64,000 nucleotides of DNA, from IMG/VR virus record IMGVR_UViG_3300025930_000008, positions 32,001 through 96,000 of that record. The stretch is one strand, 5' to 3'. Shown here in pieces: positions 2,759 through 18,158 of the stretch (the first letter of the stretch is position 1; every line of letters starts with the position of its first letter). This DNA is from a virus. The translations under genes and the position numbers were made by a program. Below the pieces are notes generated by a model, which was not told the origin of the DNA, made no database searches, and saw nothing but the letters and a program-made list of their open reading frames with translations.

Positions 2759-2766
2759 ATAGATTA

Positions 2767-3309: not shown

Positions 3310-3317
3310 ACGTATTA

Positions 3318-3663: not shown

Positions 3664-3664
3664 A

Positions 3665-3736
3665 TGGAGGATGAGGGAATCGAACCCTCAACTCCTGCGT
3701 GCAAGGCAGGCATGTTCCCGTTAGCACTAATCCCCC
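3665..3736 (-). tRNA. tRNA-Ala(TGC)
   Basis: CCTGC-CT TGC AC-GCAGG; G3:U70. Confidence 0.95.
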
Positions 3737-3945: not shown

Positions 3946-3949
3946 ATCA

Positions 3950-4022
3950 AGCCGTCCAGGGGACTTGAACCCCTAACCCCCTGCTTACAAGGCAGGCGCT
4001 CTGCCAATTGAGCTAGGACGGC
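3950..4022 (-). tRNA. tRNA-Thr(TGT)
   Basis: CCTGC-CT TGT AA-GCAGG. Confidence 0.95.
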
Positions 4023-4024
4023 AG

Positions 4025-4669: not shown

Positions 4670-4704
4670 TCCATAAACTTACCCACCAGCATGGAAATGA
4701 AAAA

Positions 4705-4775
4705 CTGGGGAACTAGGATTCGAACCTAGACGCTGAGTTCCAAAGACTCATGTGCTGCCGTTACACTATTCCCCA
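4705..4775 (-). tRNA. tRNA-Gln(TTG)
   Basis: TGAGT-CT TTG GA-ACTCA; U1:A72. Confidence 0.93.
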
Positions 4776-5134
4776 TCGGCGTAGCCAGGCTCAGGGTTAG
4801 AAGGTTCTTCGTTATCCATCCTGCGTAGACGCAGAACCATTTCACGAAGTTCCTTATCAGCCTTGTCCTGCGCTGCCTCAGTACGTGACGACTGCCAGCT
4901 TGACCAGTGAGCCACAACAATAGCATACAATGATAGCCAGGTAACAAAGAGAACTTGGTCACCAAAAGCTAAGGCTAATGGTATAGAAACTATCAGCCAG
5001 AAGATAGCAAACCAGCCGTGCAATCTCATGGCATGCTGTGAGTCAGCTAACCAGTTATGTACCTTCTTCATACATATTACATTGAGTTGTGAATGAAAAC
5101 AGTAGGCGGGATTCTGTTCTATCCATGCATCCAT
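4766..5134 (-). CDS. Two-TM membrane protein (holin-like); start uncertain
   Basis: Two hydrophobic segments then charged tail; upstream of the M15 lysin. Confidence 0.5.
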   Translation of the reverse strand: MDAWIEQNPAYCFHSQLNVICMKKVHNWLADSQHAMRLHGWFAIFWLIVSIPLALAFGDQVLFVTWLSLYAIVVAHWSSWQSSRTEAAQDKADKELREMVLRLRRMDNEEPSNPEPGYADGE

Positions 5135-5401
5135 CTATGCTCTCCACCTAGGGGATGCCCTTCCCCGGCTTGAGATTGCATCGCTTCGCTGACGGCAGAG
5201 GTACAAGCGCCCGCACCTATTTGTTGTGGCGGTAGGCGACCGCCTGTCGCTAAGGCTCCCTCCATTTTTACCCGCGCTCGTATCCCTTCCAGGGGATATG
5301 GCTCACGCAATGTCCCGACCTTCCTCGATATTTCTACCGCGCATGGTCGTAATCATTCACACTTAATGTTTATCGTCCACCAATAAACATATTATCGCCT
5401 C

Positions 5402-5566
5402 CTACCAGCGTCGTCCCCAACGGCCATCAGTGCCGCCGCCGAAGTAACTAAACAGTAGAACAACCAACAGCACAACAACTAGAATCCAAATCAGCTTGGT
5501 GAAAACAAAACCACCAACGACTGCTAGGACAACTAGGATTAGAAGTAGCAATAGTAATAGGTCCAT
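5402..5566 (-). CDS. 54-aa hydrophobic membrane peptide
   Basis: MDLLLLLLLILVVLAVVGGFVFTKLIWILVVVLLVVLLFSYFGGGTDGRWGRRW with GGAGG RBS; not in ORF track. Confidence 0.7.
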   Translation of the reverse strand: MDLLLLLLLILVVLAVVGGFVFTKLIWILVVVLLVVLLFSYFGGGTDGRWGRRW

Positions 5567-5609
5567 GATCCTCCCTTCATGCTATTAGCATACAGGAGGG
5601 CACGGATAA

Positions 5610-5680
5610 AGCGGCTAGCGGGAATCGAACCCGCAAATCTTGCATGGCAAGCAAGTAGGTTACCGTTACATCATAGCCGC
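5610..5680 (-). tRNA. tRNA-Gly(GCC)
   Basis: CTTGC-TT GCC AT-GCAAG. Confidence 0.93.
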
Positions 5681-5682
5681 AA

Positions 5683-5754
5683 CGCCCCTAATAGGAATCG
5701 AACCCATCCCTTGTGATCCGAAGTCACACGCGCTATCCAATACACCATAGGGGC
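5683..5754 (-). tRNA. tRNA-Arg(TCG)
   Basis: TGTGA-CT TCG GA-TCACA. Confidence 0.9.
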
Positions 5755-5755
5755 A

Positions 5756-5827
5756 TACCCCCGGTAGGAATCGAACCTACGCACTCGGTTCCGTAGACCG
5801 ACGCTCTATCCACTGAGCTACGAGGGC
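5756..5827 (-). tRNA. tRNA-Arg(ACG)
   Basis: TCGGT-CT ACG GA-ACCGA. Confidence 0.95.
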
Positions 5828-6013
5828 ACGTTCAGGTGCAATGACAGCACCATTGTTTACTAATTCCTGCGGGCTGTTATGGTAGTCACCATCATAACTA
5901 TGCTCATCCATGCGATACCAAACCGTAGATTCATCTACTCTTGTGATGGTACCCCATCCAGTATCTACCCAATACCCATTGTTGGGTAGGTATATCTTCC
6001 GCCCAACAGACAT
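5777..6013 (-). CDS. Hypothetical protein
   Basis: MSVGRKIYLP... start after the HNH stop; reads into tRNA-Arg(ACG). Confidence 0.5.
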   Translation of the reverse strand: MSVGRKIYLPNNGYWVDTGWGTITRVDESTVWYRMDEHSYDGDYHNSPQELVNNGAVIAPERALVAQWIERRSTEPSA

Positions 6014-6029
6014 AAGAGAATGGCGCTCT

Positions 6030-6701
6030 TTACGCAAGCGCCGCGAGAGCCATTGATACTTCGTGGGCAACGCTCGACTCAGCGGGTTCAAACTTACCCT
6101 CCATCCAGTCTTTGACAAGCCTAGCTTCATAGACTGAGCTAGACCCACGACCGATTAGTATGAGTAGCTTGGGACGCTGCTCGGACAGTGCCGTTAGGGC
6201 ACGGTCAGCAAACGCCTTTTCCTGTTCCGTGAGCAAATGAACGATAGATTTGGGTGTACCATTTCTGTCGTGAAGGTCACGGTGACAGTCTATGCAAACA
6301 GGGATGCAGTTTTCCTTGCGGTTAGACCACACTCTCTCGTAGGAATCTAGCTCTCGCAGAATCCAACGGTTGACAAAGTGGTGCTTGGTACTGTCGCCTT
6401 CCTTACCACAAAGTCTACAGGGTGGAGCAACTCTTCTCTGCTCTCTGAACTTATCCCTGCGCCTGCGTATGAGGTCAGGTATCTCGGGAATCTGACCAAG
6501 CGCTTCCCTGAGTCGCTTAAGACATTCAGCCTGCTTAATGCCAGCCTCAAGCAAATCTTCTAGGTCCACATTCTCAACGGACGCCAGCAATTCAAGCTGT
6601 TCATCCGTAGCCTTCTGATGGCTCTGGTTTATCTCAAACCAGTGATGCGGATTGAGGCATGGACTATCACAGCCGATGCCGATGTGCCTTGCGCGACTCA
6701 A
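6030..6701 (-). CDS. HNH endonuclease family protein
   Basis: CRLC...TKHHFV...NCIPVCIDCHRDLH. Confidence 0.75.
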   Translation of the reverse strand: MSRARHIGIGCDSPCLNPHHWFEINQSHQKATDEQLELLASVENVDLEDLLEAGIKQAECLKRLREALGQIPEIPDLIRRRRDKFREQRRVAPPCRLCGKEGDSTKHHFVNRWILRELDSYERVWSNRKENCIPVCIDCHRDLHDRNGTPKSIVHLLTEQEKAFADRALTALSEQRPKLLILIGRGSSSVYEARLVKDWMEGKFEPAESSVAHEVSMALAALA

Positions 6702-6715
6702 ACCTTCCCCCTTTC

Positions 6716-7024
6716 TTACGTTTCGGTATCCTCCCTACACTTAGGGCAGAGATAGTCGTCATCGAGCGTGAAGTATGTCTCAACACACTCACCACAAGTA
6801 GCATTACCTACGGGTGGAGCCAATACCTCCACCTCTTGGATCTGATAGCGCGGGCGATGCTTCTGATGATGGTAGAGAACCGTCAGCCTACCCTCTTTGA
6901 GCGCCTTGTGATAGCTGCTCTTAGGATTGTCACGAATCTCTTTCAACCGCGCGACTACTTCATCAGGAGAGTGTAGATCACGCCCCTTCTGAACAGTCTT
7001 GGCCTTGTACCAATCAACCTGCAT
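6716..7024 (-). CDS. Hypothetical protein with DDYLC Zn-finger
   Basis: Start MQVDWY; CGEC...DDDYLCPKCR. Confidence 0.65.
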   Translation of the reverse strand: MQVDWYKAKTVQKGRDLHSPDEVVARLKEIRDNPKSSYHKALKEGRLTVLYHHQKHRPRYQIQEVEVLAPPVGNATCGECVETYFTLDDDYLCPKCREDTET

Positions 7025-7364
7025 CGCGGCACTCCGGGCAAAGGTAATCGTCCCCAAAGAACGGGGACTCACACTCAGCACAGGGCTTAGCACCAGGCGG
7101 AACACCTTCGTTGAGTACCATTACAGCCCAAGGCTTAGCGACGGGTTCTTCCTCATCCTTATCAGGAATCTTTACCATCATCTTCTTCCCGGTACCCATA
7201 GGAGTTTCGGGTCGGACCTTAGAGTTGTAATGAATCTCCAACTCAGAGTCAGCGTGCCTTCCAGCGCCCTTGCTAATCTTAGCCGCGTACTTCTCGGCTT
7301 CGTCCAAGGTGGCGAAGGTCTTGAGTGGGTATGCGCTTCTGACAATCACCAAGGCCACGTCCAT
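7014..7364 (-). CDS. Hypothetical protein with DDYLC Zn-finger
   Basis: CAEC...GDDYLCPECR. Confidence 0.7.
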   Translation of the reverse strand: MDVALVIVRSAYPLKTFATLDEAEKYAAKISKGAGRHADSELEIHYNSKVRPETPMGTGKKMMVKIPDKDEEEPVAKPWAVMVLNEGVPPGAKPCAECESPFFGDDYLCPECRDAG

Positions 7365-7495
7365 CCGATGACAACAGGACCAATATGAAAGGTATACACC
7401 TTCCCTTGTGTCTCTGCATCGAGAATTGTCTTAGCGACAAAGAAGAATGGGATGCCCCATAGCTTCATCCTAAACTGTCCGTCGATCTGTTGCAT
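7346..7495 (-). CDS. 49-aa leaderless hypothetical protein
   Basis: MQQIDGQFRMKLWGIPFF...; ATG 6 nt after a -10 box. Confidence 0.5.
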   Translation of the reverse strand: MQQIDGQFRMKLWGIPFFFVAKTILDAETQGKVYTFHIGPVVIGWTWPW

Positions 7496-7501
7496 GGCCC
7501 C

Positions 7502-7530
7502 AGGATACCAGGGCGTCAGGGGAAATGCAA
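7502..7530 (-). promoter_or_regulatory. Sigma-A-type promoter for a leaderless mRNA
   Basis: TTGCAT-17 nt-TATCCT-6 nt-ATG. Confidence 0.55.
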
Positions 7531-7531
7531 G

Positions 7532-7604
7532 TAGCGCGTACGGGAATCGAACCCGTGTTACCGCCTTGAGAGGGCGGCGTATTAGGCCACTATACTAACG
7601 CGCC
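7532..7604 (-). tRNA. tRNA-Glu(CTC)
   Basis: CCGCC-CT CTC AA-GGCGG. Confidence 0.93.
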
Positions 7605-7607
7605 ATG

Positions 7608-7728
7608 TAGGGACGTTCATTTGTCGCTTTGGGCCACTCCCTATTAGGGGAGGTACGCTCGCCACACGTACAACTGACACGGGTTCAATACCCGCCGCCT
7701 CTTGACACGGGGTATCCGCCCGTCCCTA
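7608..7728 (-). ncRNA. Multi-branched structured RNA (~120 nt)
   Basis: TAGGGACG/CGTCCCTA closing stem; hairpins CGGGT/ACCCG, GTACG/CGTAC, CTCCC/GGGAG. Confidence 0.55.
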
Positions 7729-8100
7729 AGTTCTGTGTTCCTGGCAGAGAAAGTCACCGGGTAGCGCCGGGTCCCCACACTCTGCACAAAGTAGCTCACC
7801 ATCGAGCGGTTGGGAATTCAATGCGTCAACTCTTTCCTTGCCCGTGGCAAGAAGTGCGTACCACTTACGCTTGAACTCGGTATCCTGTAGGTTAACAGAG
7901 CCAAGGTCATGCCAACTGTTCGGTTGCTCCGTATGACCAATACAAATCCAAGCCGAACTATACTTCTTAGTTGTTTTGCCTTCTTTCTCTACGGGTGCAG
8001 CAGGCAAAGTAAACATATACCACTGATTTGCAGCTTCATGCTCAGGATATCGCATCTTCTTCGCTATCGTTTTGTTACGCAGTTCACGAATGTTACCCAT
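7726..8100 (-). CDS. Hypothetical protein with variant (GDFLC) Zn-finger
   Basis: CAECG...GDFLCQEHR. Confidence 0.65.
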   Translation of the reverse strand: MGNIRELRNKTIAKKMRYPEHEAANQWYMFTLPAAPVEKEGKTTKKYSSAWICIGHTEQPNSWHDLGSVNLQDTEFKRKWYALLATGKERVDALNSQPLDGELLCAECGDPALPGDFLCQEHRT

Positions 8101-8103
8101 CAA

Positions 8104-8177
8104 TACCCCCACTAGGACTCGAACCTAGAACCTTGAGATTAAAAGTCTCCTACTCTAACCAATTGAGTTATGGGGGC
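8104..8177 (-). tRNA. tRNA-Lys(TTT)
   Basis: GGAGA-CT TTT AA-TCTCA. Confidence 0.93.
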
Positions 8178-8185
8178 GCGTCCCC

Positions 8186-8614
8186 TCATACGAGGATGAG
8201 GGGAGTCACATCTACCGACTCTAGATGCTCAAAGTATCCATCCCACGGACGATACATTCGGTTCGTACGCTTCTGGTTATTGTCTGCGTGGCAGAGTCGC
8301 TGCGCAGTATAAGCATCCTGTAGGTCTGCCTTAACAGCCGGGATGGTCCACGCTCCATGAGAGCCGAACGTTCCTCCGGTTGTATAGGTGACGACTACTA
8401 GATAAGCATTCTGACCTGGCTCGATTTCATCGTAACCATAAATATCATCATAATCACTCAACTGCTGCGCGTCCCAGCCAGTTAGCTGAGTTGTGCTGAT
8501 CTTATTGATCGACACGGTAAGACCATAGTCTCCCTGATGGAGCCATGGTCCGTCGCCTTCCTCTGGCGGACTTATCTGGTAAGTATACTCAGAGAACTCT
8601 ACCCAATAGGTCAT
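8186..8614 (-). CDS. Hypothetical phage protein
   Basis: 142-aa ORF filling the inter-tRNA gap. Confidence 0.65.
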   Translation of the reverse strand: MTYWVEFSEYTYQISPPEEGDGPWLHQGDYGLTVSINKISTTQLTGWDAQQLSDYDDIYGYDEIEPGQNAYLVVVTYTTGGTFGSHGAWTIPAVKADLQDAYTAQRLCHADNNQKRTNRMYRPWDGYFEHLESVDVTPLILV

Positions 8615-8641
8615 CGCACGACCCTTTCTTTACTTGTTAGG

Positions 8642-8714
8642 GGTGAACGACGGGAGTCGAACCCGCATCTACATGGACCACAACCATGTGCATTACCATT
8701 ATGCTACGCTCACC
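8642..8714 (-). tRNA. tRNA-His(GTG)
   Basis: CATGG-TT GTG GT-CCATG; encoded G-1:C73. Confidence 0.93.
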
Positions 8715-8722
8715 ATGTTCAG

Positions 8723-8805
8723 TACGCCCGGTGGGATTTGAACCCACAATGCCGCAAGGCCAGAAGGGTTTAAGCCTCCCGCGTATACCGTTCCGCCACG
8801 GGCGC
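8723..8805 (-). tRNA. tRNA-Leu(TAA)
   Basis: GGAGG-CT TAA AC-CCTTC; long variable arm. Confidence 0.92.
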
Positions 8806-8808
8806 TAG

Positions 8809-8881
8809 CTGCCGAGCTAGGGATCGAACCTAGACTTTCCTGATCCAGAGTCAGGCGTGTTTCCAGTTACACCACTCGGCA
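8809..8881 (-). tRNA. tRNA-Gln(CTG)
   Basis: CCTGA-CT CTG GA-TCAGG. Confidence 0.92.
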
Positions 8882-9123
8882 ATAATCTTCCTATCCATGG
8901 CGACAATCTTACCACGGCCATTGAAATCGTGCTGTCTCAACGTCCAATAGATCGTAGGCTCATCAATATCCTCCGCCTTAGGTTTAGTTAGCTGCCAGCG
9001 TCTGGAATGCGTCCGACAAAATACCTTGCCAGGGACCACTACATGCCCACAGACATAACACATACCCGTACTATCACGTCCATGACGCTTAGGATTAAGC
9101 TCACGAAATAGTTCCTTGGTCAT
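8851..9123 (-). CDS. Hypothetical protein with CxxC...CxxH finger
   Basis: MTKELF...CYVCG...FCRTH; stop inside tRNA-Gln(CTG). Confidence 0.5.
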   Translation of the reverse strand: MTKELFRELNPKRHGRDSTGMCYVCGHVVVPGKVFCRTHSRRWQLTKPKAEDIDEPTIYWTLRQHDFNGRGKIVAMDRKIIAEWCNWKHA

Positions 9124-9125
9124 AG

Positions 9126-9207
9126 TACCGGGAGCGGGATTTGAACCCGCACGCTTATCAGGCATCGGGGTTTGAGGCCGACGTGTCTACCATTCCACCA
9201 TCCCGGC
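9126..9207 (-). tRNA. tRNA-Leu(CAA)
   Basis: TCGGC-CT CAA AC-CCCGA; long variable arm. Confidence 0.9.
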
Positions 9208-9215
9208 ATAGGTTA

Positions 9216-9287
9216 TAGCGCGACGGGGAATCGAACCCCGGTTACAGGCTTGAAAGGCCCGCGTCCTAACCATTAAACGACCGCGCC
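9216..9287 (-). tRNA. tRNA-Glu(TTC)
   Basis: CGGGC-CT TTC AA-GCCTG. Confidence 0.93.
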
Positions 9288-9363
9288 TAGCGAGAGAGTC
9301 GGATGAAGTGAACACGCAGCGTGTTCTATGAGGGTAGGATAACCGCTCTCTCATACCTACCAA

Positions 9364-9436
9364 TGGGCACGGTTGGAATCGAACCAACGACTTCCACCTT
9401 ATCAGAGTGGCGCTCTAACCGCTGAACTACGTGCCC
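9364..9436 (-). tRNA. tRNA-Ile(GAT)
   Basis: CCACT-CT GAT AA-GGTGG. Confidence 0.95.
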
Positions 9437-9437
9437 G

Positions 9438-10175
9438 TTAGGGTAATTGCCTTAGAGAATGCTTGCCCATCGGGATGCAAGCCTCACCATCATCATTCAA
9501 GATAGTCTCCAAGTCCTCAACTCGTAAGAAACAATCTCCGTCCAGACCCCAGGTCTTGCCCCAGGAGTTGCGCAAGCGTACCACATGAAGCTCGCCGTGT
9601 CCAGGGAATCGACGCTTGAGGGCATGACCGCGTACACAAATAGCATGACCACCGACGTGCTGTCCAGAAATGTCAAGCAGCCCGGAAGGGTCCGGGTCAA
9701 ACATGCTATCGCGCCACCAAATGCCAATTTCCACGACACCGTGGTTAGATAAGGTGGCTAGTACGTCATCAATGCTGAACGCCCAACGGTATGAGTCAAT
9801 GAACCCATACTGTTGCATGATCTTCGCACCTGACAATACAGAAGTACCATCGTTGTGCGGATTAGCGCCAGGGTATGCTCCACCCGGCCAAGGATCATTC
9901 TTTTGAGCTTCCCAATAGACCTTTTGCTCTGCAAAGCTATTGGAAATACCTCGCGTGTGATCTTTGTACGCTGAGGCGCAGTGGCTCCATGAGAAACCTA
10001 CACAAGCACCCTCTTGTCCCTGGTCTAACCAGACTGGACACTGCCAAGTCTTAGTCTTTAGCGTCTCGGGGACCAGACCACGGATATCGTAGTCCTTTGA
10101 GCGGTCATCGAACTCTTGGAGTCTATCGAGCCGCCTGTCTTGTGTATCTGTACCGTCGCGTAGAGTAGGCATCAC
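9438..10175 (-). CDS. Papain-family (C1A-like) cysteine peptidase
   Basis: DQGQEGACVGFS, GGHA, RNSWG catalytic motifs. Confidence 0.9.
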   Translation of the reverse strand: MMPTLRDGTDTQDRRLDRLQEFDDRSKDYDIRGLVPETLKTKTWQCPVWLDQGQEGACVGFSWSHCASAYKDHTRGISNSFAEQKVYWEAQKNDPWPGGAYPGANPHNDGTSVLSGAKIMQQYGFIDSYRWAFSIDDVLATLSNHGVVEIGIWWRDSMFDPDPSGLLDISGQHVGGHAICVRGHALKRRFPGHGELHVVRLRNSWGKTWGLDGDCFLRVEDLETILNDDGEACIPMGKHSLRQLP

Positions 10176-10194
10176 CCATTACGCTACGGAGGCA

Positions 10195-10266
10195 TGGCGA
10201 ATATTGGAGTCGAACCAATGACGCGAGGTTCTTCAGACCTCCGCTCTACCACTGAGCTAATTCGCC
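10195..10266 (-). tRNA. tRNA-Phe(GAA)
   Basis: GAGGT-CT GAA GA-ACCTC. Confidence 0.95.
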
Positions 10267-10348
10267 AAGTGAAGGCGGTTCGCCCCGCACCTTACGAACC
10301 CGAATCGTACGCGGTGGGCATAGGACACTAGTAATCCATTACCGCCAG

Positions 10349-10438
10349 CGGAGAGTGTAGGATTCGAACCCACGCGCCGGTTCAAGGCCGACCAACGGTT
10401 TTCAAGACCGCCCCAATAGTCCACTCTGGCAACTCTCC
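10349..10438 (-). tRNA. tRNA-Ser(TGA)
   Basis: GCGGT-CT TGA AA-ACCGT; long variable arm. Confidence 0.95.
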
Positions 10439-10439
10439 A

Positions 10440-10872
10440 TGTCGTGTATAAATAAGCTGCGAGAGGCATAGCGTCCGCAGCTAAGATAGCCCGAATTGCA
10501 AGGTAAAGGTCAGGCCCTAGGCTCATCTGGCACAGCCGGGGTGTCCGTCCCTACGTAGGTTCATTCCAGGCCACGACTACCTAGCTGAAACCTATACCTC
10601 GGAGGCGTTCGCAGCCCCAAGCGGGTGAAGAACCACTTCAACCTTTAAGTTTAGAAACCTCCTGTTCGATGACAAATGATAGACATTTCAACCGACCTGA
10701 GCGTGTCCGTGGATACTGTGTTCGCACGCAGCGGTCAAGCACTCGGCCCCATATCCTTTTCGGCTGGCTACTCCGTCGCCCTTGCACAGTCATAGGTTTC
10801 TAAGGGTTCCCGCCCTCCACCTAATCTTCCCGCACAGTATGTGTCAGTCTATAAGCCTCAGGTTCTCAGCCA
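10440..10872 (-). ncRNA. Large pseudoknotted structured RNA candidate
   Basis: ~430 nt without a credible ORF; three long-range helices, two of them crossing. Confidence 0.55.
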
Positions 10873-11094
10873 CTATTGGCCCTGTCCTAACCACCCTTGT
10901 AGGTGACTTTTATCTGCGACAACCTCTACATTGAGAGGGTCCCATGGTTGGGGCTGATCCCGTAGTGATTCATCCTCGGGATTTTCTGCCACAATCCAAG
11001 TGATGCCAGGATCGCTGTGAGCATACTCCCCCCAATACTTCAATGCATCGGCTTCGCTCACCACTCGGCCATACAGACCGTAGTAGTGATTCAA
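10873..11094 (-). CDS. Hypothetical protein (start uncertain)
   Basis: Open frame between tRNA-Cys and the ncRNA; TTG start assumed. Confidence 0.4.
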   Translation of the reverse strand: MNHYYGLYGRVVSEADALKYWGEYAHSDPGITWIVAENPEDESLRDQPQPWDPLNVEVVADKSHLQGWLGQGQ

Positions 11095-11121
11095 GATAAG
11101 GTATCTGACCTTAGTCTTGCA

Positions 11122-11192
11122 AGGCAAGGACGGGAGTCGAACCCGTGTTACAGGTTTTGCAGACCCGCGCGTAGCCATTCCGCCACCTTGCC
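11122..11192 (-). tRNA. tRNA-Cys(GCA)
   Basis: CGGGT-CT GCA AA-ACCTG; U73. Confidence 0.95.
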
Positions 11193-11306
11193 ATTACGTC
11201 GTAGACATTCCTCACGGTCACAATTACATGCGTTCTGACAAACGAAACCCTTGTGACACTCACAGTCTTTGATGGGCTGTTCACAAATAGTACATTTCCA
11301 TACCAT
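11148..11306 (-). CDS. Small Cys-rich protein
   Basis: MVWKCTICEQPIKDCECHKGFVCQNACNC; stop inside tRNA-Cys. Confidence 0.45.
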   Translation of the reverse strand: MVWKCTICEQPIKDCECHKGFVCQNACNCDREECLRRNGKVAEWLRAGLQNL

Positions 11307-11308
11307 AG

Positions 11309-11380
11309 CTCGCCGGGTAGGACTTGAACCTACAACCATTCGGTTAACAGCCGAACGCTCTGCCATTGAGCTACCGGCGA
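11309..11380 (-). tRNA. tRNA-Asn(GTT)
   Basis: TTCGG-CT GTT AA-CCGAA. Confidence 0.95.
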
Positions 11381-11631
11381 CTGTTGATCCAACTATCTAG
11401 ACACGCCTTATGAGTGGGCAGTAACTCCCAATCAGCGTGCCAAGTACCCTGCACAATGTCAAAGGTTTCCGTACCTTCGTCTGACCACTCGCCACCCATG
11501 CGTTGTATTTTACACGGGATTCCCTGGCGTCCTTCCTGAGCCTGTTCAACTGTAATGATACGCCAGATCGCACATTCGCTTTTATCAAAGCGGTAGTTTG
11601 CATATATTCTACCGACTAGCGGCTCTTTCAT
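11371..11631 (-). CDS. Hypothetical protein
   Basis: 86-aa ORF filling the gap; stop at tRNA-Asn nt 8-10. Confidence 0.55.
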   Translation of the reverse strand: MKEPLVGRIYANYRFDKSECAIWRIITVEQAQEGRQGIPCKIQRMGGEWSDEGTETFDIVQGTWHADWELLPTHKACLDSWINSRR

Positions 11632-11632
11632 A

Positions 11633-11705
11633 TGCCCCCAACAGGGATCGAACCTGTGACCTTGAGATTAAGAGTCTCCTGCTCTACCGGCTGAGCTATA
11701 GGGGC
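11633..11705 (-). tRNA. tRNA-Lys(CTT)
   Basis: GGAGA-CT CTT AA-TCTCA. Confidence 0.93.
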
Positions 11706-11769
11706 GATGATTGGTCATTCCCCTTACCCCTAGGGAATCGTTACTGGATGGGCAACCAATCAAGTTGTA

Positions 11770-11849
11770 TGGCGGGTGGAGGAATCGAACCTCATTACGC
11801 TCTCGCCAGCTAGGTTATGAGCCTTGCTGCCCAAACCTGGGCACCCGCG
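11770..11849 (-). tRNA. Atypical CAT tRNA (initiator-like)
   Basis: CGCGGGTG 5' end with unpaired C1, shrunken D-arm, CTCATAA loop, long variable region, TTCGATT T-loop. Confidence 0.7.
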
Positions 11850-11863
11850 TCGTAAATTTGCTA

Positions 11864-11949
11864 CGGAGAGTGGGGGATTTGAACCCCCGGTACCCACTGG
11901 ATACTCCGTCTTAGCAGGACGGTGCATTAAGCCACTCTGCCAACTCTCC
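11864..11949 (-). tRNA. tRNA-Ser(GCT)
   Basis: CCGTC-CT GCT AA-GACGG. Confidence 0.95.
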
Positions 11950-12135
11950 CTGTGTGATACGTGGCACCCACGTACCCCTTTTAACTAAGGCGAAAAACTC
12001 TATCAACGTACACTTAGAACTATCCGTCAATCCATCTACACGGCCGTCTGTGTAAGTCCAATAAACTCTTTCCGTCTTAGGATCATAGAGATAATCCTTC
12101 ACCATTGCGTTCGCTTCCCAACGAAAAGAAATCAT
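11911..12135 (-). CDS. Hypothetical protein
   Basis: 74-aa ORF; stop in the tRNA-Ser anticodon loop. Confidence 0.45.
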   Translation of the reverse strand: MISFRWEANAMVKDYLYDPKTERVYWTYTDGRVDGLTDSSKCTLIEFFALVKRGTWVPRITQGELAEWLNAPSC

Positions 12136-12136
12136 A

Positions 12137-12208
12137 CGGCCCCGGTGAGAATCGAACTCACATCTATCCCTTAGGAGGGGATCGTTCTGTCCATTATACT
12201 ACAGGGCC
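12137..12208 (-). tRNA. tRNA-Arg(CCT)
   Basis: ATCCC-CT CCT AA-GGGAT. Confidence 0.9.
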
Positions 12209-12264
12209 AGAAGCAGGGCATTTCAGCCCCACCCACGTCACCGCTTTAGGACAACGGCTGCCTG

Positions 12265-12468
12265 TCAGATATCCATAGCGCACTGGTTAACGCAATCCCG
12301 ACAACAATTGCACACCGTATCGTAATCGCCACCGATTTCCTCTGCATACGGACAGCCATGAGGAATCTCTCCCTCATTACCGCAGTTACAGAGCGGACTG
12401 ATTGCCGATAACAACCAGTCTTTGACAACCTGCTTGTAAATATGCATACGTATTTGCACAGCAGGCAT
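12265..12468 (-). CDS. Small Cys-rich protein
   Basis: CNCG...HGCPYAEEI...CNCCRDCVNQCAMDI. Confidence 0.55.
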   Translation of the reverse strand: MPAVQIRMHIYKQVVKDWLLSAISPLCNCGNEGEIPHGCPYAEEIGGDYDTVCNCCRDCVNQCAMDI

Positions 12469-12540
12469 AGGCCAGGATGGATTTGAACCATCGACCCGCA
12501 CCTTATAAGAGTGCCGCTCTAACCCCTGAGCTACTGGCCC
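12468..12540 (-). tRNA. tRNA-Ile(TAT)
   Basis: GCACT-CT TAT AA-GGTGC; body resembles tRNA-Ile(GAT). Confidence 0.92.
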
Positions 12541-12549
12541 AATTAGTTA

Positions 12550-12728
12550 GAGGATCGTATATGGGGGACTTACTTCATGGATAGGTACGCACTACGCCGG
12601 GGCGACCACACCCCTCTCGGCCAGCACGCATACTCCTAGATGTAGTCAACATCGTTAGTGACCTATATCAATCCGCTTACCCTTATCCCACCTGCGCACT
12701 GTGGGCGGCAATTATCCGTCCGATCCTC
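12550..12728 (-). ncRNA. Structured RNA (~180 nt)
   Basis: GAGGATCG/CGATCCTC closing stem fills the Thr-Ile spacer; internal CCCAC/GTGGG, GATGT/ACATC, GGGG/CCCC hairpins. Confidence 0.55.
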
Positions 12729-12729
12729 A

Positions 12730-12801
12730 AGCCCGCGAGGGGAATCGAACCCCTATCCCTGCTTTACGAAAGCAGTATAATAGCCGTTATACTACGCGGG
12801 C
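12730..12801 (-). tRNA. tRNA-Thr(CGT)
   Basis: CTGCT-TT CGT AA-AGCAG. Confidence 0.92.
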
Positions 12802-12899
12802 GACTTACTTATCAGGCACAATCATAGTGCCTTTACAGATGGGACATACCCTACCATTGTTAAGGATGCCCCCTTTCATCTTGCATTTACAATCCATAG

Positions 12900-13349
12900 T
12901 GGAGGTGGGCGGAATTGAACCGCCGTCCTGCGTACACTTGTTGACTCAGTTTCTAGCAGCTTTGTAATACAATACTGGCAACCGGTTCTGAGCCGCCTAC
13001 CCTTACTCTACCACAAGATACGGCAGACTCATGCTAGTGACTGTTTGAAATAGTCGGGAGCAGCCTGTTGTTCCGTACACCCTGCTGTCGAGATTACTCA
13101 CCACGCAATGGAAATACCATTAGAGTGGAGCCGAGTAAGCCAATTAGATTGACCGTCTAATCTTTCCAAACAAGGATTTGGGACTTTATACCCCGGCCAC
13201 GCTTTCTGTTCCTAGGTCCGTGGCTCCTGACCCGAGCGGACTAAGCCGCTAGAGCAAACGTATGAGTGTCTGCAATTATTGTTAGTGGTAGGCCACTACC
13301 CGCTGCACTAAGGCAACCGCATCTTACACAGTCGATGCCTGTCACCCCC
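12900..13349 (-). ncRNA. ssrA: tmRNA; tag reading frame ADTHTFALAA* at 13273-13241
   Basis: 5' GGGGGTGACAGGCATCGAC; 3' GACGGCGGTTCAATTCCGCCCACCTCCA; G3:U70; AATAATT before GCA resume codon; ALAA-stop. Confidence 0.95.
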
Positions 13350-13553
13350 ATGATTATCAGCCTCCACCTAGCCTTATTAGACTAACGTCTAGCTTACGGC
13401 CTCGCTCTAGATTTGCTGACACGGAGCGAATTAAAGTTTATGCCGGATTTCTTGGACGGCTCCGGCAACCGCCCATAAGGAGTTTATGAAAGGTGGTACC
13501 TCAACAAGACCGCGATATTCGCCTTGTTCCTCTCATAGACTCCACCAAGTTAT

Positions 13554-13686
13554 ACGAGAGTCCACTGTGCCGTAGCCACTCCGAACGGTTCCTGCCGTCC
13601 CGCACTAGCCTCACGGTCTAGGCGATGGTCGGGAGACAATCTCCCCCTTGGGGCAGTCCATCCCAACTTAGAAGTAGAACTCTCTA
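13554..13686 (-). ncRNA. Structured RNA (~130 nt) with CAGGAA hairpin
   Basis: GAGAGTT/GACTCTC closing stem; ACGG-CAGGAA-CCGT. Confidence 0.5.
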
Positions 13687-13687
13687 G

Positions 13688-13757
13688 TAGACCGGGCAGG
13701 ATTCGAACCTGCAATGAACAATGATAAAGATTGTTTGTGTACCGTACACACCGGTCA
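13688..13757 (-). tRNA. tRNA-Pyl-shaped element with TTA (ochre) anticodon
   Basis: TGACCGG T GTGT ACGGT ACAC A AACAAT CTTTATC ATTGTT CATT GCAGG TTCGAAT CCTGC CCGGTCT A. Confidence 0.7.
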
Positions 13758-13824
13758 AGCCCCGGCATAGGGTTCCCGCCCTATGTTACTCCGGGGTCGT
13801 CCACGGACAATTAGTCGATGGACA

Positions 13825-13896
13825 TGGGCCGCACTGGAATCGAACCAGTGACTTCCTGCGTGTCGAGCAGGCGTTCTACCGCTGAACTAGCGGCCC
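13825..13896 (-). tRNA. tRNA-Val(GAC)
   Basis: CCTGC-TC GAC AC-GCAGG (C33). Confidence 0.9.
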
Positions 13897-13995
13897 TAGT
13901 TACGTGAGCTAGCTTACTCACTTCGCTAGCTCACACCCAAAACAACGCCTGATTCTGACGATGCGTGAGCGGGATGGTTGACCAACCAGAACAAC

Positions 13996-14024
13996 AGTTT
14001 AGCCGATGTTCTGGCGACTGTCAA
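13996..14024 (-). promoter_or_regulatory. Sigma-A/70-type promoter
   Basis: TTGACA-17 nt-TAAACT upstream of Val(GAC), the ochre element and tmRNA. Confidence 0.7.
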
Positions 14025-14026
14025 GC

Positions 14027-14188
14027 TTATCGGGACGAGAGGTAAACGCCTTCTATCTTTGCCCCACTGTACTCCTGCTTGTCAATCGCGTCTGCAACAG
14101 CAAGACCAACATCTTGGCGCAAGTCAAACTTCTTGATAGGCGCCAACGTCGTCGGAATGGTGATGACCACCGTGATTGTATTATCCAT
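14027..14188 (-). CDS. 53-aa hypothetical protein
   Basis: MDNTITVVITIPTTLAPIKKFDLRQDVG...; not in ORF track. Confidence 0.45.
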   Translation of the reverse strand: MDNTITVVITIPTTLAPIKKFDLRQDVGLAVADAIDKQEYSGAKIEGVYLSSR

Positions 14189-14214
14189 GCTAAAAACGTA
14201 GCACGACTGTCAAG

Positions 14215-14286
14215 TGGACCCGGCTGGGATCGAACCAGCGACCTTCTGCTTGTAAGGCAGACGTTCTCCCACTAAACTACGGGTCC
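14215..14286 (-). tRNA. tRNA-Val(TAC)
   Basis: TCTGC-CT TAC AA-GCAGA. Confidence 0.93.
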
Positions 14287-14289
14287 GCA

Positions 14290-14365
14290 GCAGGCTCCCT
14301 CATGGGGCGTACCTCCCATAGACACTACCCGACAGGTTCCCGCCTGTCAAGGCGAGGGAACCTGC
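14290..14365 (-). ncRNA. Three-way-junction RNA with CGGGAA hairpin
   Basis: GCAGGTTCCCTC/GAGGGAGCCTGC stem enclosing GACAGG-CGGGAA-CCTGTC and ATGGG/CCCAT. Confidence 0.55.
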
Positions 14366-14427
14366 GTGCTTAATCCCCGTGGGTACGCACGGATTAGGTA
14401 CTGCGATGGCCCCTGACTGATGGGCAG

Positions 14428-14499
14428 AGCCGTCACCGGGAATCGAACCCGGCTTACTAACTTACCAAGCTAGGGTAATATCCGATATACTATGACGGC
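14428..14499 (-). tRNA. tRNA-Thr(GGT)
   Basis: CTAGC-TT GGT AA-GTTAG. Confidence 0.9.
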
Positions 14500-14502
14500 T
14501 TA

Positions 14503-14576
<74 letters not shown>

Positions 14577-14741
14577 TTACAAATGACTGAATACATAAGT
14601 CACAGCAGAGATACCATGACTAATGAAACTCATGATACCGGTGGCAGCAGCCACCTTGAGGTACCACAATTCCTTACGGCTGAGCGTAACCTTTTCCTCA
14701 GCCTTCTTTATGGCTTTAAGTTTCGCTTCTTCCTTGTCCAT
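14577..14741 (-). CDS. Small membrane protein
   Basis: MDKEEAKL... charged N-terminus and one C-terminal TM segment. Confidence 0.5.
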   Translation of the reverse strand: MDKEEAKLKAIKKAEEKVTLSRKELWYLKVAAATGIMSFISHGISAVTYVFSHL

Positions 14742-15066
14742 TGAGCGCCTTGCTTTGACGCCGCTTATACCCAAAGATCAAGTAGAGCGCGACATTCCCT
14801 GCGATGAATCCCACCGCATTCAGCGGGATATAGTAGGAAAACCCTGTGTCAAGTCTCTCAACGTTGTTAGTCAACGCTGACGTGGCTAAGAGCAGATACG
14901 AAACGGCAATGAGTACAACATGGAGCGGCAGCAGAGCTACATATCCTCCCTGCTTGCGCAGTTTGAGGTAGCTCTGGGTATATACCACCACAATCAGCAC
15001 CACAAACGACACAATGCCTCCGTACAGAAAGATATTCAAGTATCGGAGGCCATCCAAAATGCTCAT
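14716..15066 (-). CDS. Three-TM membrane protein
   Basis: Three hydrophobic segments, basic tail. Confidence 0.65.
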   Translation of the reverse strand: MSILDGLRYLNIFLYGGIVSFVVLIVVVYTQSYLKLRKQGGYVALLPLHVVLIAVSYLLLATSALTNNVERLDTGFSYYIPLNAVGFIAGNVALYLIFGYKRRQSKALNGQGRSET

Positions 15067-15080
15067 GCTCTATTACCTAG

Positions 15081-15151
15081 CGGGGGATCGAGGATTTGAA
15101 CCCCGAAGTTCGGGTTTGGAGGCCGACAGTTTACCATTAGCTTAATCCCCC
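15081..15151 (-). tRNA. tRNA-Trp(CCA)
   Basis: TCGGC-CT CCA AA-CCCGA; G73. Confidence 0.9.
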
Positions 15152-15452
15152 AGGAGCGCACGGAGGGAGCGCGAGATTCTCTCACCCCTCGGTTATGTGA
15201 ACAGACTTGTCATACGCCGACTTCACGCGGGCGGATTCTAACCATAGACCCTAAGGCGTATAGTTCATATGTGACTATACCGCGAAGGGACTCCGTTTCC
15301 ATCGAATACTCCTGAACGCATGGTGCCATCTGAAACAATCGTCATTGCCACGCCGCTTTTCGCTACTTGTATACTGCCCTCCGGGGATCAATCCATCCAG
15401 ACGCATACGTTTGCTCGCTACAGCCGTGCGCATGTATTGAGCAATGACGAAG

Positions 15453-15534
15453 TACGCCCGGAGGGACTTGAACCCCCACACCTTTCGGCATCAGGACCTA
15501 AACCTGACGTGTCTACCGATTCCACCACGGGCGC
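15453..15534 (-). tRNA. tRNA-Leu(TAG)
   Basis: TCAGG-TT TAG GT-CCTGA. Confidence 0.93.
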
Positions 15535-15668
15535 TAGTACCGATAACGTTCAAGGAAGGGCTGTTATCGGTGTTATCGTGCGACTGCCATTGGACCATAT
15601 TCATAGTCGAGAGCCTTGCGCCGCTGCATGATACCCCGGATTCCCGTCCGGCATATTCATGCCTGATA

Positions 15669-15751
15669 TGCGATCAGTGAGAGTCGAACTCACACGCCTG
15701 TTAGGGCACTGACCCCTCAAGCCAGCGTGTCTACCATTTCACCATGATCGC
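15669..15751 (-). tRNA. tRNA-Leu(GAG)
   Basis: CTGGC-TT GAG GG-GTCAG. Confidence 0.93.
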
Positions 15752-15765
15752 TAAAGATTTTGAAA

Positions 15766-15847
15766 TGGCGGGAGTAGGATTCGAACCTACGAAGGCATAG
15801 CCGTCTGATTTACAGTCAGATGCGTTTGACCGCTCCGCAACCCCGCC
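15766..15847 (-). tRNA. tRNA-Tyr(GTA)
   Basis: TCTGA-CT GTA AA-TCAGA. Confidence 0.95.
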
Positions 15848-15856
15848 GAATAAACA

Positions 15857-15972
15857 CTTGGGCACCTAGATTGGGTGCGACCCTTCTCTTTCAAGTCAAC
15901 TTCCTCCTGCCTAGCCTTATCCGGGCAGATGGTTCGCCGTATCTACGGCTGATCTAGGAGTTGGCTCCCAAG
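15857..15972 (-). ncRNA. Structured RNA candidate (~115 nt)
   Basis: CTTGGG/CCCAAG and CCTAGAT/ATCTAGG nested closing stems; GCCGTA/TACGGC and CTGCC/GGCAG hairpins. Confidence 0.45.
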
Positions 15973-16007
15973 CTATGTAGTTTTTGTCAGTCTACCAGAC
16001 TGTCAAG

Positions 16008-16080
16008 CGCCCCCGCCCGGATTTGAACCGGGAACCTGCGGTTTAGAAGGCCGCTGCGCTATCCGTTGCGCCACAGGGGC
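16008..16080 (-). tRNA. tRNA-Arg(TCT)
   Basis: GCGGC-CT TCT AA-ACCGC. Confidence 0.92.
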
Positions 16081-16082
16081 AT

Positions 16083-16110
16083 AAAAAAGGCGACCCTCTT
16101 TGGTCGCCCC
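16083..16110 (-). terminator. Intrinsic terminator directly upstream of the first tRNA
   Basis: GGGGCGACC-aaagag-GGTCGCC-TTTTTT. Confidence 0.8.
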
Positions 16111-16457
16111 CGTCTTACACCTATCGTATGGGTAGACGAGAGCTAGACCAGGGGCTTACGACCTCCGATAAAGGCGTCCCAATTCTGATGTTCGGTCGAA
16201 TATCTCATACTCGTCTGATTCTTAGTGCAGGCGGGGCACCCGTTTTATAGGTCCCCGCGATGGTCGTTTCACGATAGCAGATGGTCCGGTGGAGTCAAGA
16301 GCGCCAACGCGCCAAGACGGATCGGGGCACCTTCACCTTTGGCGAATGACCCTCAGGCCGATCACAAGGATAGCCGTCACCACCATTGCCGGGTGCCCAC
16401 CAGACCACCCCATCCCACTTCACGCGATAGATACAGTATCTACAATCAGCACTGAAT

Positions 16458-18158
16458 CTATATACCGCAGGCTCCACCGACGCAGCGTTCTTCCGACTCT
16501 TCAAAGACCACGCCTTCCTGTTCACGCGCGACATTATAGCCGACCGCGCTCAAGGGCTGTCCGCCCCGCGCCCCGTCAGGATAGCAGGTCACGCCGCGAA
16601 GTCTAGGGAGATAATCATACAACATCTTCCCAAAGTCCTCAACTTCATCCGGGTCTGTGATTACATACGGGAGGTTGATCGTGGAGGATATTCCGTGATC
16701 GACGTACTGCTGTACGAAGGCTTGAAACGCAATCCTTTTTTCCACATTGTATGAGAGCGAGTACGCATCTTCAATCTGGTCTGGCGCCACTCCATACTCG
16801 TCAACCAATCTCTTTGCGGTGGGATCAACGACGTACTGGTACTTCCATGTTTTGCCTGACGCCAGGTATCGACGTTTGTACGCCACACAGAAGATCGGTT
16901 CAATGCCAGTAGTTGTTTCAGCGATAATCCCGATTGTGCCTGTTGGAGCAATTGCTCTAGTCTTTGCAGGCCGAGTAAGGTTATGGCGATCTGCCCAATA
17001 GTGAGCGTACTCTGTCGCCTTTGTGTAGTATTCCAACCACTCTGCCAACTCTTCGTTTGGCTCATATGAATAACCTCGCTTGAGCAACCACTCATGAATT
17101 CCCATCAGGCCAAGGCCAAGACGCCTGTTCTTCTGACGAACAGCGTCAACCTTTTCGTAAGGGACATGACTATAAACCGTGCCTGCTAATAGGAAAAGAG
17201 TCGCATGGAATACAGCATCACCAAAGTCATCTAGGCTATCAAACCGTGCTAGATTTAGACTACCTAAATTACAAATGTCTGAATCATCTGTAGAGGTAAC
17301 CTCCGTGCAAGCGTTGCGTAGAGTTTCACCTGCGTTCTCCCCTGTGTCAATAGAGAACCCTGGCTCTGCCGTCTTGAGCATTCGCTTGACCGTAGACGAA
17401 TAAACATGCACTGCCTGGTCATGTAGCTCATGCCAGTCGTTCTCGTATGCTACAAAAAATTCATCGTCTAGAATAATGGATACATTAGTCATATCCAACG
17501 TGGCCGGGAAGTTGAAATCCTTCTCTTTGAGGGCGCGTACCTCTGCGGGCCAGTCCTTAACGCGAATAAACTTAATAGCATCAGGATGGGACCACTTAAG
17601 GCCAGCCCAAATAGCAGAACGACGACTACCACCCTGCATGATATGACGGCCACACTCATTGACCATTTCCATCAACGAAATAGGACCGGAAGCGAATCCA
17701 CCAGTGCGCTTGATAGGTTCACCCTCTGCACGCACATCAGAATAGTCTATACCGATACCGGCACCTGTCATCAGCGCCATAGACGCCCGGTAGAGTAGGT
17801 CAGACCATTCCTCGCGTGAGTCGCCAGCCTTTAACAACAAACAGTTCTGCGTCTGGTGTAGGTCACGACCTGAGGCGTACAGGTAACGACCACCCGGCAT
17901 GAACTGCCTGTTCGTAATAAGATTCAATACTCGCTGATACTCAGGAGTTGTATGGTCATAATCCAGGGCACCCAAAACATGCTTAGTAACACGCTCTGCT
18001 GTGTCCTCCCACGACTCCACTGGATTGCCGTTTTCGTCCTTCCAAGCGTACTTCTGTTCGTAAATAGATGATGCGAATGGACTCATGTCTACTTCCCGTA
18101 GTTCCTTGACTGTTACGGGAAGTGAGTCCCTCTCTGCTAGTGCCACTGTCGGTTGCAT
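16458..18158 (-). CDS. nrdJ: Ribonucleotide reductase, class II (B12-dependent)
   Basis: PGGR, NCLL, GAGIG, NACTE, CNLGSLNL, APTGT, C-terminal C..GAC; no beta subunit nearby. Confidence 0.88.
   Translation of the reverse strand: MQPTVALAERDSLPVTVKELREVDMSPFASSIYEQKYAWKDENGNPVESWEDTAERVTKHVLGALDYDHTTPEYQRVLNLITNRQFMPGGRYLYASGRDLHQTQNCLLLKAGDSREEWSDLLYRASMALMTGAGIGIDYSDVRAEGEPIKRTGGFASGPISLMEMVNECGRHIMQGGSRRSAIWAGLKWSHPDAIKFIRVKDWPAEVRALKEKDFNFPATLDMTNVSIILDDEFFVAYENDWHELHDQAVHVYSSTVKRMLKTAEPGFSIDTGENAGETLRNACTEVTSTDDSDICNLGSLNLARFDSLDDFGDAVFHATLFLLAGTVYSHVPYEKVDAVRQKNRRLGLGLMGIHEWLLKRGYSYEPNEELAEWLEYYTKATEYAHYWADRHNLTRPAKTRAIAPTGTIGIIAETTTGIEPIFCVAYKRRYLASGKTWKYQYVVDPTAKRLVDEYGVAPDQIEDAYSLSYNVEKRIAFQAFVQQYVDHGISSTINLPYVITDPDEVEDFGKMLYDYLPRLRGVTCYPDGARGGQPLSAVGYNVAREQEGVVFEESEERCVGGACGI

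Follow-up and report, generated by a model that had tools for sequence, protein, structure and literature searches.

The window analysed here is a stretch of 64,000 nucleotides (nt), bases 32001-96000 of a 107-kb viral record in IMG/VR (IMGVR_UViG_3300025930_000008), whose completeness is put at 67% by CheckV. The record comes from a large, uncultured phage. In the window, phage replication and tail functions are represented by genes for DNA polymerase, helicase, ribonucleotide reductase (RNR), baseplate wedge, and minor tail protein, and the minus strand has, at 2766-16080, a tRNA island with 37 ARAGORN tRNA calls and a transfer-messenger RNA (tmRNA). Between tRNA-Val(GAC) and the tmRNA of this island lies the subject of this report, a real tRNA-type gene with a UUA anticodon, which matches the stop codon UAA (hereafter the UUA tRNA). 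Its core is compact and its position 37 a pyrimidine, and it is not part of a genetic-code change. The gene and its parts are given below.

13688-13757, minus strand: tRNA-like gene of 70 nt (ARAGORN, Rfam RF00005, and z-score of the fold), with an identical copy at 11310-11379 of the metagenome contig L098
13757-13751 with 13695-13689, minus strand: acceptor stem of 7 pairs, including a U1-U72 mismatch
13750, minus strand: linker U8, a single nucleotide
13749-13737, minus strand: D-arm, with a stem of 4 base pairs (bp), GUGU/ACAC, and a 5-nt loop, ACGGU
13735-13717, minus strand: anticodon arm, with a 6-bp stem and the loop CUUUAUC
13727-13725, minus strand: anticodon, UUA (ARAGORN)
13716-13713, minus strand: variable loop of 4 nt, CAUU
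13712-13696, minus strand: T-arm, with the loop UUCGAAU
13688, minus strand: discriminator A (A73), with the CCA end not encoded

The ARAGORN call for the gene is tRNA-Stop(tta), minus strand, 13687-13757. With 36.3 bits (E 4.6e-6), above the gathering score of 29, the gene is also matched by the Rfam tRNA model RF00005 over model positions 1-71. This match appears only when a short stretch (481 bases) is searched, the run on the whole window being silent, and it is the lowest Rfam tRNA score in the array, the remaining tRNAs scoring 50-74 bits. The predicted fold has an energy of -23.2 kcal/mol (z = -3.6), and only 1 of 200 shuffled sequences folded equally well. A first-pass annotation, made from the letters alone, had placed the gene, its strand, and its anticodon correctly. 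The structural details that it had listed (the 1-nt linker, the D-arm, the 6-bp anticodon stem, the loops, U1:U72, and the pyrimidine at 37) are likewise all present in the sequence.

The cloverleaf register of the UUA tRNA is not unique. The compact fold listed above has -21.9 kcal/mol, which is 3.6 better than the canonical register drawn by ARAGORN and Rfam (-18.3 kcal/mol), with its 2-nt linker, A-C mismatch in the D-stem, 5-nt variable loop, and A26-U44 pair, which there provides the sixth pair of the anticodon stem; when folding is left free, the minimum-energy structure has a D-stem of 6 bp closing a 3-nt loop and lacks linkers. The compact fold was accepted as the best cloverleaf because U8, A14, G10, Y11-R24, and G18G19 fall at the places conserved in tRNAs; G53:C61, U54-U55-C56, and A58 are also present in this register. 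The anticodon stem then consists of six Watson-Crick pairs, nearly all of them A/U, and is separated from the D-arm by one unpaired A. Its 7-nt loop contains U33, the UUA anticodon, U37, and C38, with C32 facing C38. Other anticodon registers, such as UAU, were rejected by inspection of the sequence, as they break the pairing of the stem.

The base at position 37 is U and thus not a purine. Among 127 ARAGORN tRNAs from the window and from the loci of its relatives, 126 have A or G at this position, and the sole pyrimidine is that of the UUA tRNA. Its anticodon starts at position 31, and in none of 90 tRNAs of the relatives does it start before position 33. It was reported that position 37 is normally a modified purine, which stabilizes the weak A36-U pair in readers of U-starting codons, and that a 1:72 mismatch excludes the bacterial initiator tRNA from the A site (PMC11231383).

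The RNA had been described in the first-pass annotation as tRNA-Pyl-shaped, which is true of the 1-nt linker, the 5-nt D-loop, and the 6-bp anticodon stem and untrue of the remaining defining features. What defines tRNA-Pyl is its CUA anticodon, an anticodon stem of 6 bp, and a variable arm of 3 nt, together with G73 and G1:C72 as universal identity elements; in Methanosarcina and Desulfitobacterium it also has a 1-nt linker, a 5-nt D-loop without G18G19, and a T-loop without TΨC (PMC7609411). In addition, A37 is an identity element for the pyrrolysyl-tRNA synthetase (PylRS) of M. barkeri, and a fourth nucleotide in the variable loop lowers PylRS-dependent suppression (PMC7609411). The UUA tRNA and tRNA-Pyl (pylT; PMC7609411, PMC1851642) have in common the U8 linker, the 5-nt D-loop, the 6-bp anticodon stem, an anticodon for a stop codon, and the 7/5 acceptor/T geometry. 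On the other hand, the UUA tRNA has UUA instead of CUA, a variable loop of 4 rather than 3 nt, G18G19 and TΨC where tRNA-Pyl lacks both, A73 instead of G73, U1-U72 instead of G1:C72, and U37 instead of A37, and tRNA-Pyl identity was rejected on these grounds. In the available record, which is 67% complete, the UUA tRNA is also, unlike tRNA-Pyl, not accompanied by PylRS and pylBCD.

The mammalian mitochondrial tRNA-Ser(UCN), a type I mitochondrial tRNA (PMC7609411), is the better structural analogue, because it combines a compact core with retained G18G19 and TΨC. Its linker is 1 nt long, its D-loop small, its anticodon stem 6 bp long, and its variable loop short, all as in the UUA tRNA (PMC7609411). 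It differs in its sense anticodon, UGA, its 3-nt variable loop, and its mitochondrial origin; the likeness is one of architecture only, with no evidence of common descent.

With regard to the genetic code, TAA ends 51 of 93 long open reading frames and 65 of 120 crude gene calls, in which TAG follows with 37 and TGA with 18. The first-pass annotation had held that TAA is clearly a stop here, and it is in fact the commonest terminator. Reassignment of TAA to sense was rejected, TAA being the main stop and coding being dense under table 11. Within five codons, 31% of TAA stops are followed by another stop, versus 44% of TGA stops; back-up stops are thus not enriched after TAA, which indicates that stop usage has not been adapted to a suppressor. 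In the few cases of a long in-frame extension past TAA, it is an adjacent gene. Since 102 of the 120 genes end in UAA or UAG, a strong reader of these codons would be harmful.

These counts bear on the possibility that the UUA tRNA is a selected weak ochre suppressor, kept for occasional UAA read-through of one or more client genes that lie in the unsequenced third of the genome or have escaped recognition. Intact stems and tertiary nucleotides, together with the 67% completeness of the record, leave room for this explanation. However, no split gene bridged by TAA and no other read-through client was found in the crude gene calls of the available genome, and the 107-kb record contains no release-factor domain, no Pth or Pth2, and no UAA-gated R[AG]PP leader (the sole R[AG]PP match after a stop uses TAG and lies antisense within a plus-strand gene). 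Pth2 was not found in five relatives either, one of which is a complete genome. Moreover, U37 is the opposite of what is expected of a selected reader of a U-starting codon, and the gene is absent from L005, the nearest relative with the same tRNA order. Such a suppressor is therefore considered possible but unlikely.

It appears that the island as a whole is functional, a view supported by a complete Cca-type CCA-adding enzyme encoded by the phage, with head, RNA-binding, HD, and tRNA_NucTran2 domains. The island tRNAs have no encoded CCA, and enzyme and tRNAs thus fit together. The enzyme forms part of a fusion protein; searches of Pfam, PHROGs, PDB sequences, and the ESM Atlas gave no match to the N-terminal 560 residues of this protein.

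G000:C1:13593-17189, minus strand, outside the window, and L449 197-3790: Cca fusion protein of 1198 residues, with Cca at residues 563-1029 (PolyA_pol, RNA-binding, HD, tRNA_NucTran2_2)

Large phage proteins of unknown function, among them this 560-residue domain fused to the CCA-adding enzyme, might be taken to include a dedicated synthetase of an unrecognized kind, forming with the UUA tRNA a pyrrolysine-like orthogonal pair that inserts a specific, possibly non-standard, amino acid at chosen UAA codons. That PylRS does not read the anticodon (PMC7609411) and that one third of the genome is missing are in keeping with this idea. On the other side, the PylRS-specific and PheRS/PylRS-type models TIGR02367 and PF01409 have no match in the window or in the whole 107-kb record, so that the first-pass statement that no PylRS is encoded extends to all of the available sequence. 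No class Ic, class IIb, or PheRS/PylRS-type synthetase core, nor any other class II core, is present in these 107 kb, and there are no in-frame TAA clients. U37 also stands in place of the A37 recognized by the M. barkeri enzyme. An orthogonal pair is accordingly regarded as extremely improbable.

Several searches were carried out for similar tRNAs elsewhere. In IMG/VR, the CUUUAUC loop at tRNA spacing from an exact T-loop gave 13 matches, none called as a tRNA; with a widened T-loop, no tRNA was seen among the 121 matches listed; and the exact anticodon-arm pattern gave 2 chance matches, neither of them a tRNA. Among 50,697 phage records searched with megablast and blastn, no full-length match to the UUA tRNA was obtained, only generic T-arm matches. 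The canonical ochre loop CUUUAAA served as positive control and returned at least seven tRNA(tta) of 73-77 nt among the 113 matches listed. In the genomes of GTDB, one full cloverleaf with the CUUUAUC loop was found among the 120 matches listed.

CAZKRU010000027.1 (locus L206), 3570-3645, plus strand: tRNA(tta) of a Verrucomicrobiota metagenome-assembled genome, with the loop CUUUAUC (U37, C38)

The scaffold of this tRNA is unrelated to that of the UUA tRNA, as it has a canonical 2-nt linker, a 5-bp anticodon stem, and an A/U-rich acceptor drawn with 8 pairs, the first of them U-G. The small open reading frames around it match only PHROGs of unknown function and a 3'-5' exonuclease, which suggests that the locus belongs to a phage or prophage.

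The UUA tRNA is an aberrant structural form of an already known kind, the stop-anticodon tRNAs of standard-code phages. A UUA tRNA under the standard code was reported in the Klebsiella jumbo phage phiKp24 (PMC8386662), and TAA-suppressor tRNAs were tallied by Borges et al. (bioRxiv 10.1101/2021.08.26.457843). These reports, together with the canonical UUA tRNAs of viral contigs recovered in the control search, speak for a weak suppressor. As in the present case, such orphan "Sup-TTA" tRNAs have an anticodon matching UAA in phages where TAA still ends most genes and no cognate synthetase is encoded. However, the viral UUA tRNAs of the control search are canonical and 73-77 nt long (their A37 and A38 being fixed by the search pattern), whereas the one described here is 70 nt long, combines a compact core with U37, C38, and a 1:72 mismatch, and is carried by no relative.

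The laboratory ochre suppressors of Escherichia coli (supG/supL from tRNA-Lys, supB from tRNA-Gln, and supC from tRNA-Tyr; Eggertsson and Soll 1988, as cited in PMC8386662) offer another comparison. With their UUA anticodon, these suppressors read UAA and, by wobble, UAG, and only weak ones are tolerated, UAA being the main stop. They are single-base anticodon mutants of an identifiable sense tRNA, in which A37 and the identity set are kept, whereas the UUA tRNA of the phage has no identifiable parent in its own array and a pyrimidine at position 37.

The origin of the gene was approached through its relatives. The identical copy in L098 (Ga0070689_100001252; 11310-11379) comes from an independent metagenome assembly, and the gene is therefore not an assembly artefact. 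This 16-kb contig was all that a single scan of metagenomes returned. The island is nearly identical in the two contigs, with 9 differences in about 2,800 positions (0.3%; 13653-16457), and the identity of the tRNA thus says nothing on selection. The RNR gene at 16458-18158 shows 77 differences (4.5%), and this contrast points to possible mosaic recombination at the RNR gene. Among the more distant relatives, the nearest one that shares the tRNA order is L005 (RNR 75% identical), where the order is Arg, Tyr, Leu, Leu, Trp, Pro, Thr, Val, Val, tmRNA, Thr, Ile, Arg, and in its 307-nt spacer between Val and tmRNA nothing aligns to the UUA tRNA. When the compact fold was made into a covariance model (R1) and run against 81 sources (1.27 Mb) and against five relatives over their whole records, no homologue came up. 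Judged from these comparisons, the turnover of the island is rapid.

The best match of R1, with 34.7 bits, is a canonical tRNA-Ile(UAU) of the relative L007. It shares with the UUA tRNA the U1-U72 mismatch, A73, the GUGU/ACAC D-stem, and a 4-nt YAUU variable loop, with compensatory changes at 3:70 and 6:67, and its anticodon loop is CUUAUAA versus CUUUAUC. It nominally ranks first in similarity among 126 tRNAs, sharing 49 of 70 positions against a median of 42 of 70; Tyr tRNAs reach 48-52. The likeness is only marginally the closest and provides a lead on the origin of the gene, not a demonstration. In its own array, the UUA tRNA has no close paralogue or parent.

This lead belongs to the view that the gene is a dead pseudo-tRNA, a duplicate now decaying, which possibly derives from a gene like that of tRNA-Ile(UAU) and is neither matured nor charged any more; the route would possibly have led through deletions in the 8-9 linker and the D-loop and an indel in the anticodon loop. 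An Rfam score below that of every other tRNA of the array, a U37 unique among 127 tRNAs, the 1:72 mismatch, and the restriction to one lineage would all suit a gene in decay, as would the features shared with the tRNA-Ile(UAU) of L007. But the stems are perfect and the contacts between T- and D-loop intact, so RNase P, 3' processing, and the CCA-adding enzyme should accept the RNA, and the likeness to tRNA-Ile(UAU) is barely above that to other tRNAs. A dead gene is for these reasons judged improbable.

Some further tRNA-like elements were noticed in the relatives. In L007 (16835-16909) and L045 (12251-12325), there are 75-nt class I tRNAs with a UAA anticodon that ARAGORN names Leu and that have no long variable arm, the defining trait of bacterial tRNA-Leu. 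In L005, the region 16970-17096, between the tmRNA and tRNA-Thr(CGU), gives a weak partial tRNA-like match (24.6 bits), overlapped by a match to the Y-RNA-like YrlA (23.9 bits versus a cut-off of 69).

The immediate surroundings of the UUA tRNA contain the following features.

13996-14024, minus strand: sigma-70-like promoter candidate (TTGACA, 17 nt, TAAACT), consisting only of a 10/12 match to the consensus
13825-13896, minus strand: tRNA-Val(GAC), canonical, immediately upstream in the same orientation (ARAGORN; Rfam 66.6 bits)
13760-13796, minus strand: upstream spacer hairpin with a 6-bp outer stem, a 5-nt bulge, a 7-bp inner stem, and a CGGGAA hexaloop
13583-13600, minus strand: downstream spacer hairpin with a CAGGAA hexaloop, in a structured spacer of 338 nt between tRNA and tmRNA
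12897-13349, minus strand: phage tmRNA, the next gene downstream (Rfam RF00023, 68.8 bits; ARAGORN)
13241-13273, minus strand: likely tag frame of the tmRNA, ADTHTFALAA, ending in UAG (tag translation)
15636-15651, 14328-14351, 13766-13785, 13583-13600, 10802-10817, and 3442-3455, minus strand: C(A/G)GGAA hexaloop hairpins (hairpin scan)

The promoter candidate belongs to the motif CTTGACAGTC, which recurs at 16007, 14214, and 14025 on the minus strand. Each copy has a TTGACA -35-like hexamer inside and lies directly after or between tRNA genes, and the copies are candidate internal promoters of the tRNA island. No terminator-like site was found from the promoter candidate to the tmRNA, and one transcript spanning tRNA-Val(GAC), the UUA tRNA, and the tmRNA is plausible. 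The tmRNA, whose proximity the first-pass annotation had pointed out, lies 339 nt downstream of the UUA tRNA. The tag peptide given for it by ARAGORN looks miscalled, the frame after the resume region being a typical ...ALAA tag. In L005, the tag frame of the tmRNA appears to end in UAA, as read by eye from the alignment.

The two C(A/G)GGAA hairpins that had been noted on either side of the UUA tRNA are indeed there (13766-13785 and 13583-13600), and the full upstream spacer hairpin (13760-13796) ends 2 nt short of the 5' end of the tRNA. On the RNA strand of the island there are six such hairpins versus 0.21 expected from shuffles (maximum 2 in 300), with differing, perfectly paired stems, placed in the spacers between tRNAs. 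With six of them spread across the array, these hairpins are not specific to the UUA tRNA. The only difference between the window and L098 in 650 nt (13787-13790, minus strand) consists of four consecutive transitions, AGUA to GACG, and is confined to the 5-nt bulge of the upstream hairpin.

It is partly from this setting, between hairpins with a conserved loop and directly upstream of the tmRNA, that a non-decoding role could be argued, in which the RNA mimics a tRNA as a decoy or competitive binder for anticodon nucleases of the PrrC/RloC type or serves as a processing mark for spacers and tmRNA. Such defences recognize the modified U34-U35 of tRNA-Lys, tRNA-Glu, and tRNA-Gln; among anticodons with U34-U35, UUA alone interferes with no sense codon, and its loop starts with C32-U33-U34-U35, a start shared with the tRNA-Lys(UUU) of this array. 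U37 and the 1:72 mismatch speak against use in the A site, while the elements of the L-shape are kept. No genes for countermeasures against anticodon nucleases were seen, although no search aimed at them was made. A cleavable decoy, however, gives poor protection against a catalytic nuclease, L005 makes its tmRNA without a UUA tRNA, and there is no conservation that would show selection, the idea being wholly inferential. The probability of such a mimic is accordingly rated as low.

Another sidelight on the island is a second aberrant tRNA, at 11772-11848 (minus strand), with a CAU anticodon and a length of about 77-80 nt. Its anticodon stem of 6 pairs has an A-A mismatch, its extra arm is medium-sized, and positions 1 and 72 form a C1-C72 mismatch. 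Its D-arm is drawn by ARAGORN with a 3-pair stem and a single linker and by the alignment to tRNA-Sec with six positions paired and a 4-nt loop. It is missed by the Rfam tRNA model, its best match being tRNA-Sec with 26.4 bits, below the cut-off of 47. In the relative L005, its slot (Ser, Met, Lys) is filled by a normal 75-nt tRNA-Met.

Taken together, the explanation favoured here, albeit tentatively and with somewhat less than even confidence, is that the UUA tRNA is a young, lineage-specific paralogue that is probably still matured and that, if charged, causes at most faint UAA/UAG read-through on which nothing in the genome relies. This explanation builds on observed facts: the gene with its fold, its uniqueness, the use of the standard code, and the lack of clients and of a synthetase in the available genome. 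Briefly, the UUA tRNA would be co-transcribed with tRNA-Val(GAC) and the tmRNA from the promoter about 240 nt upstream and excised by host RNase P and 3' processing enzymes. Such processing is to be expected because the acceptor/T-arm minihelix and the contacts between D-loop and T-loop are intact. A CCA end would then be added by the phage's own CCA-adding enzyme. If the host charges the product at all, lysyl- or glutaminyl-tRNA synthetase would be the most plausible enzyme by established identity rules, acting via U34-U35 together with A73 or the open 1:72 position. The loop with U37 and C38, the A/U-rich anticodon stem, and the unpaired 1:72 would make for poor decoding, and the outcome of charging would be low-level read-through of UAA and, by wobble, of UAG. 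The selective value of the UUA tRNA is probably marginal or none, because nothing in the available genome depends on read-through. The first-pass annotation had guessed at a weak ochre suppressor, a regulator occupying stop codons, or a decoy, of which only the weak suppressor is compatible with the anatomy.

Several points weigh against a paralogue of so little consequence. All 21 stem pairs besides 1:72 are perfect, unlike in a long-decayed gene, and the mismatch itself need not impair function, as the canonical tRNA-Ile(UAU) of L007 also has U1-U72 and A73. The lost position 9, the short D-loop, and the extra pair in the anticodon stem form the very set that gives a working L-shape in tRNA-Pyl and mitochondrial tRNA-Ser(UCN), and by analogy such coordinated compaction hints at a maintained function. 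A second, unrelated tRNA with an identical CUUUAUC loop exists in the phage-like region of the Verrucomicrobiota genome. In addition, a client gene or a dedicated enzyme could sit in the missing third of the record, and we infer transcription, processing, charging, and weak decoding from sequence features.

The perfect stems, the compaction, and the L206 tRNA keep more interesting readings alive. One of them is that the core is compact by design, as a phage tRNA scaffold of the mitochondrial-Ser(UCN)/Pyl type that escapes elongation through U37 and the open 1:72 pair and acts either as a harmless mimic occupying U34-U35-specific enzymes or nucleases or as a substrate of an unrecognized charging enzyme that reads selected UAA codons. 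This is considered distinctly improbable; if it were true, the class would also include the CUUUAUC tRNA of L206.

It is a known puzzle that phages with the standard code have stop-anticodon tRNAs, and most of the reported cases are canonical. Beyond mitochondria and pyrrolysine systems, a compact core of this kind is rare in nature, and in the UUA tRNA described here it goes together with a pyrimidine at position 37. If this tRNA were charged and orthogonal, it would be of interest for genetic-code expansion, and if it were a decoy, it would represent a new tactic in the contest between phage and host over tRNAs. On the present evidence, the young paralogue favoured above more likely illustrates how fast phage tRNA islands create and drop aberrant tRNA genes, and "suppressor tRNA" calls from tRNA finders should not be taken as evidence of recoding.

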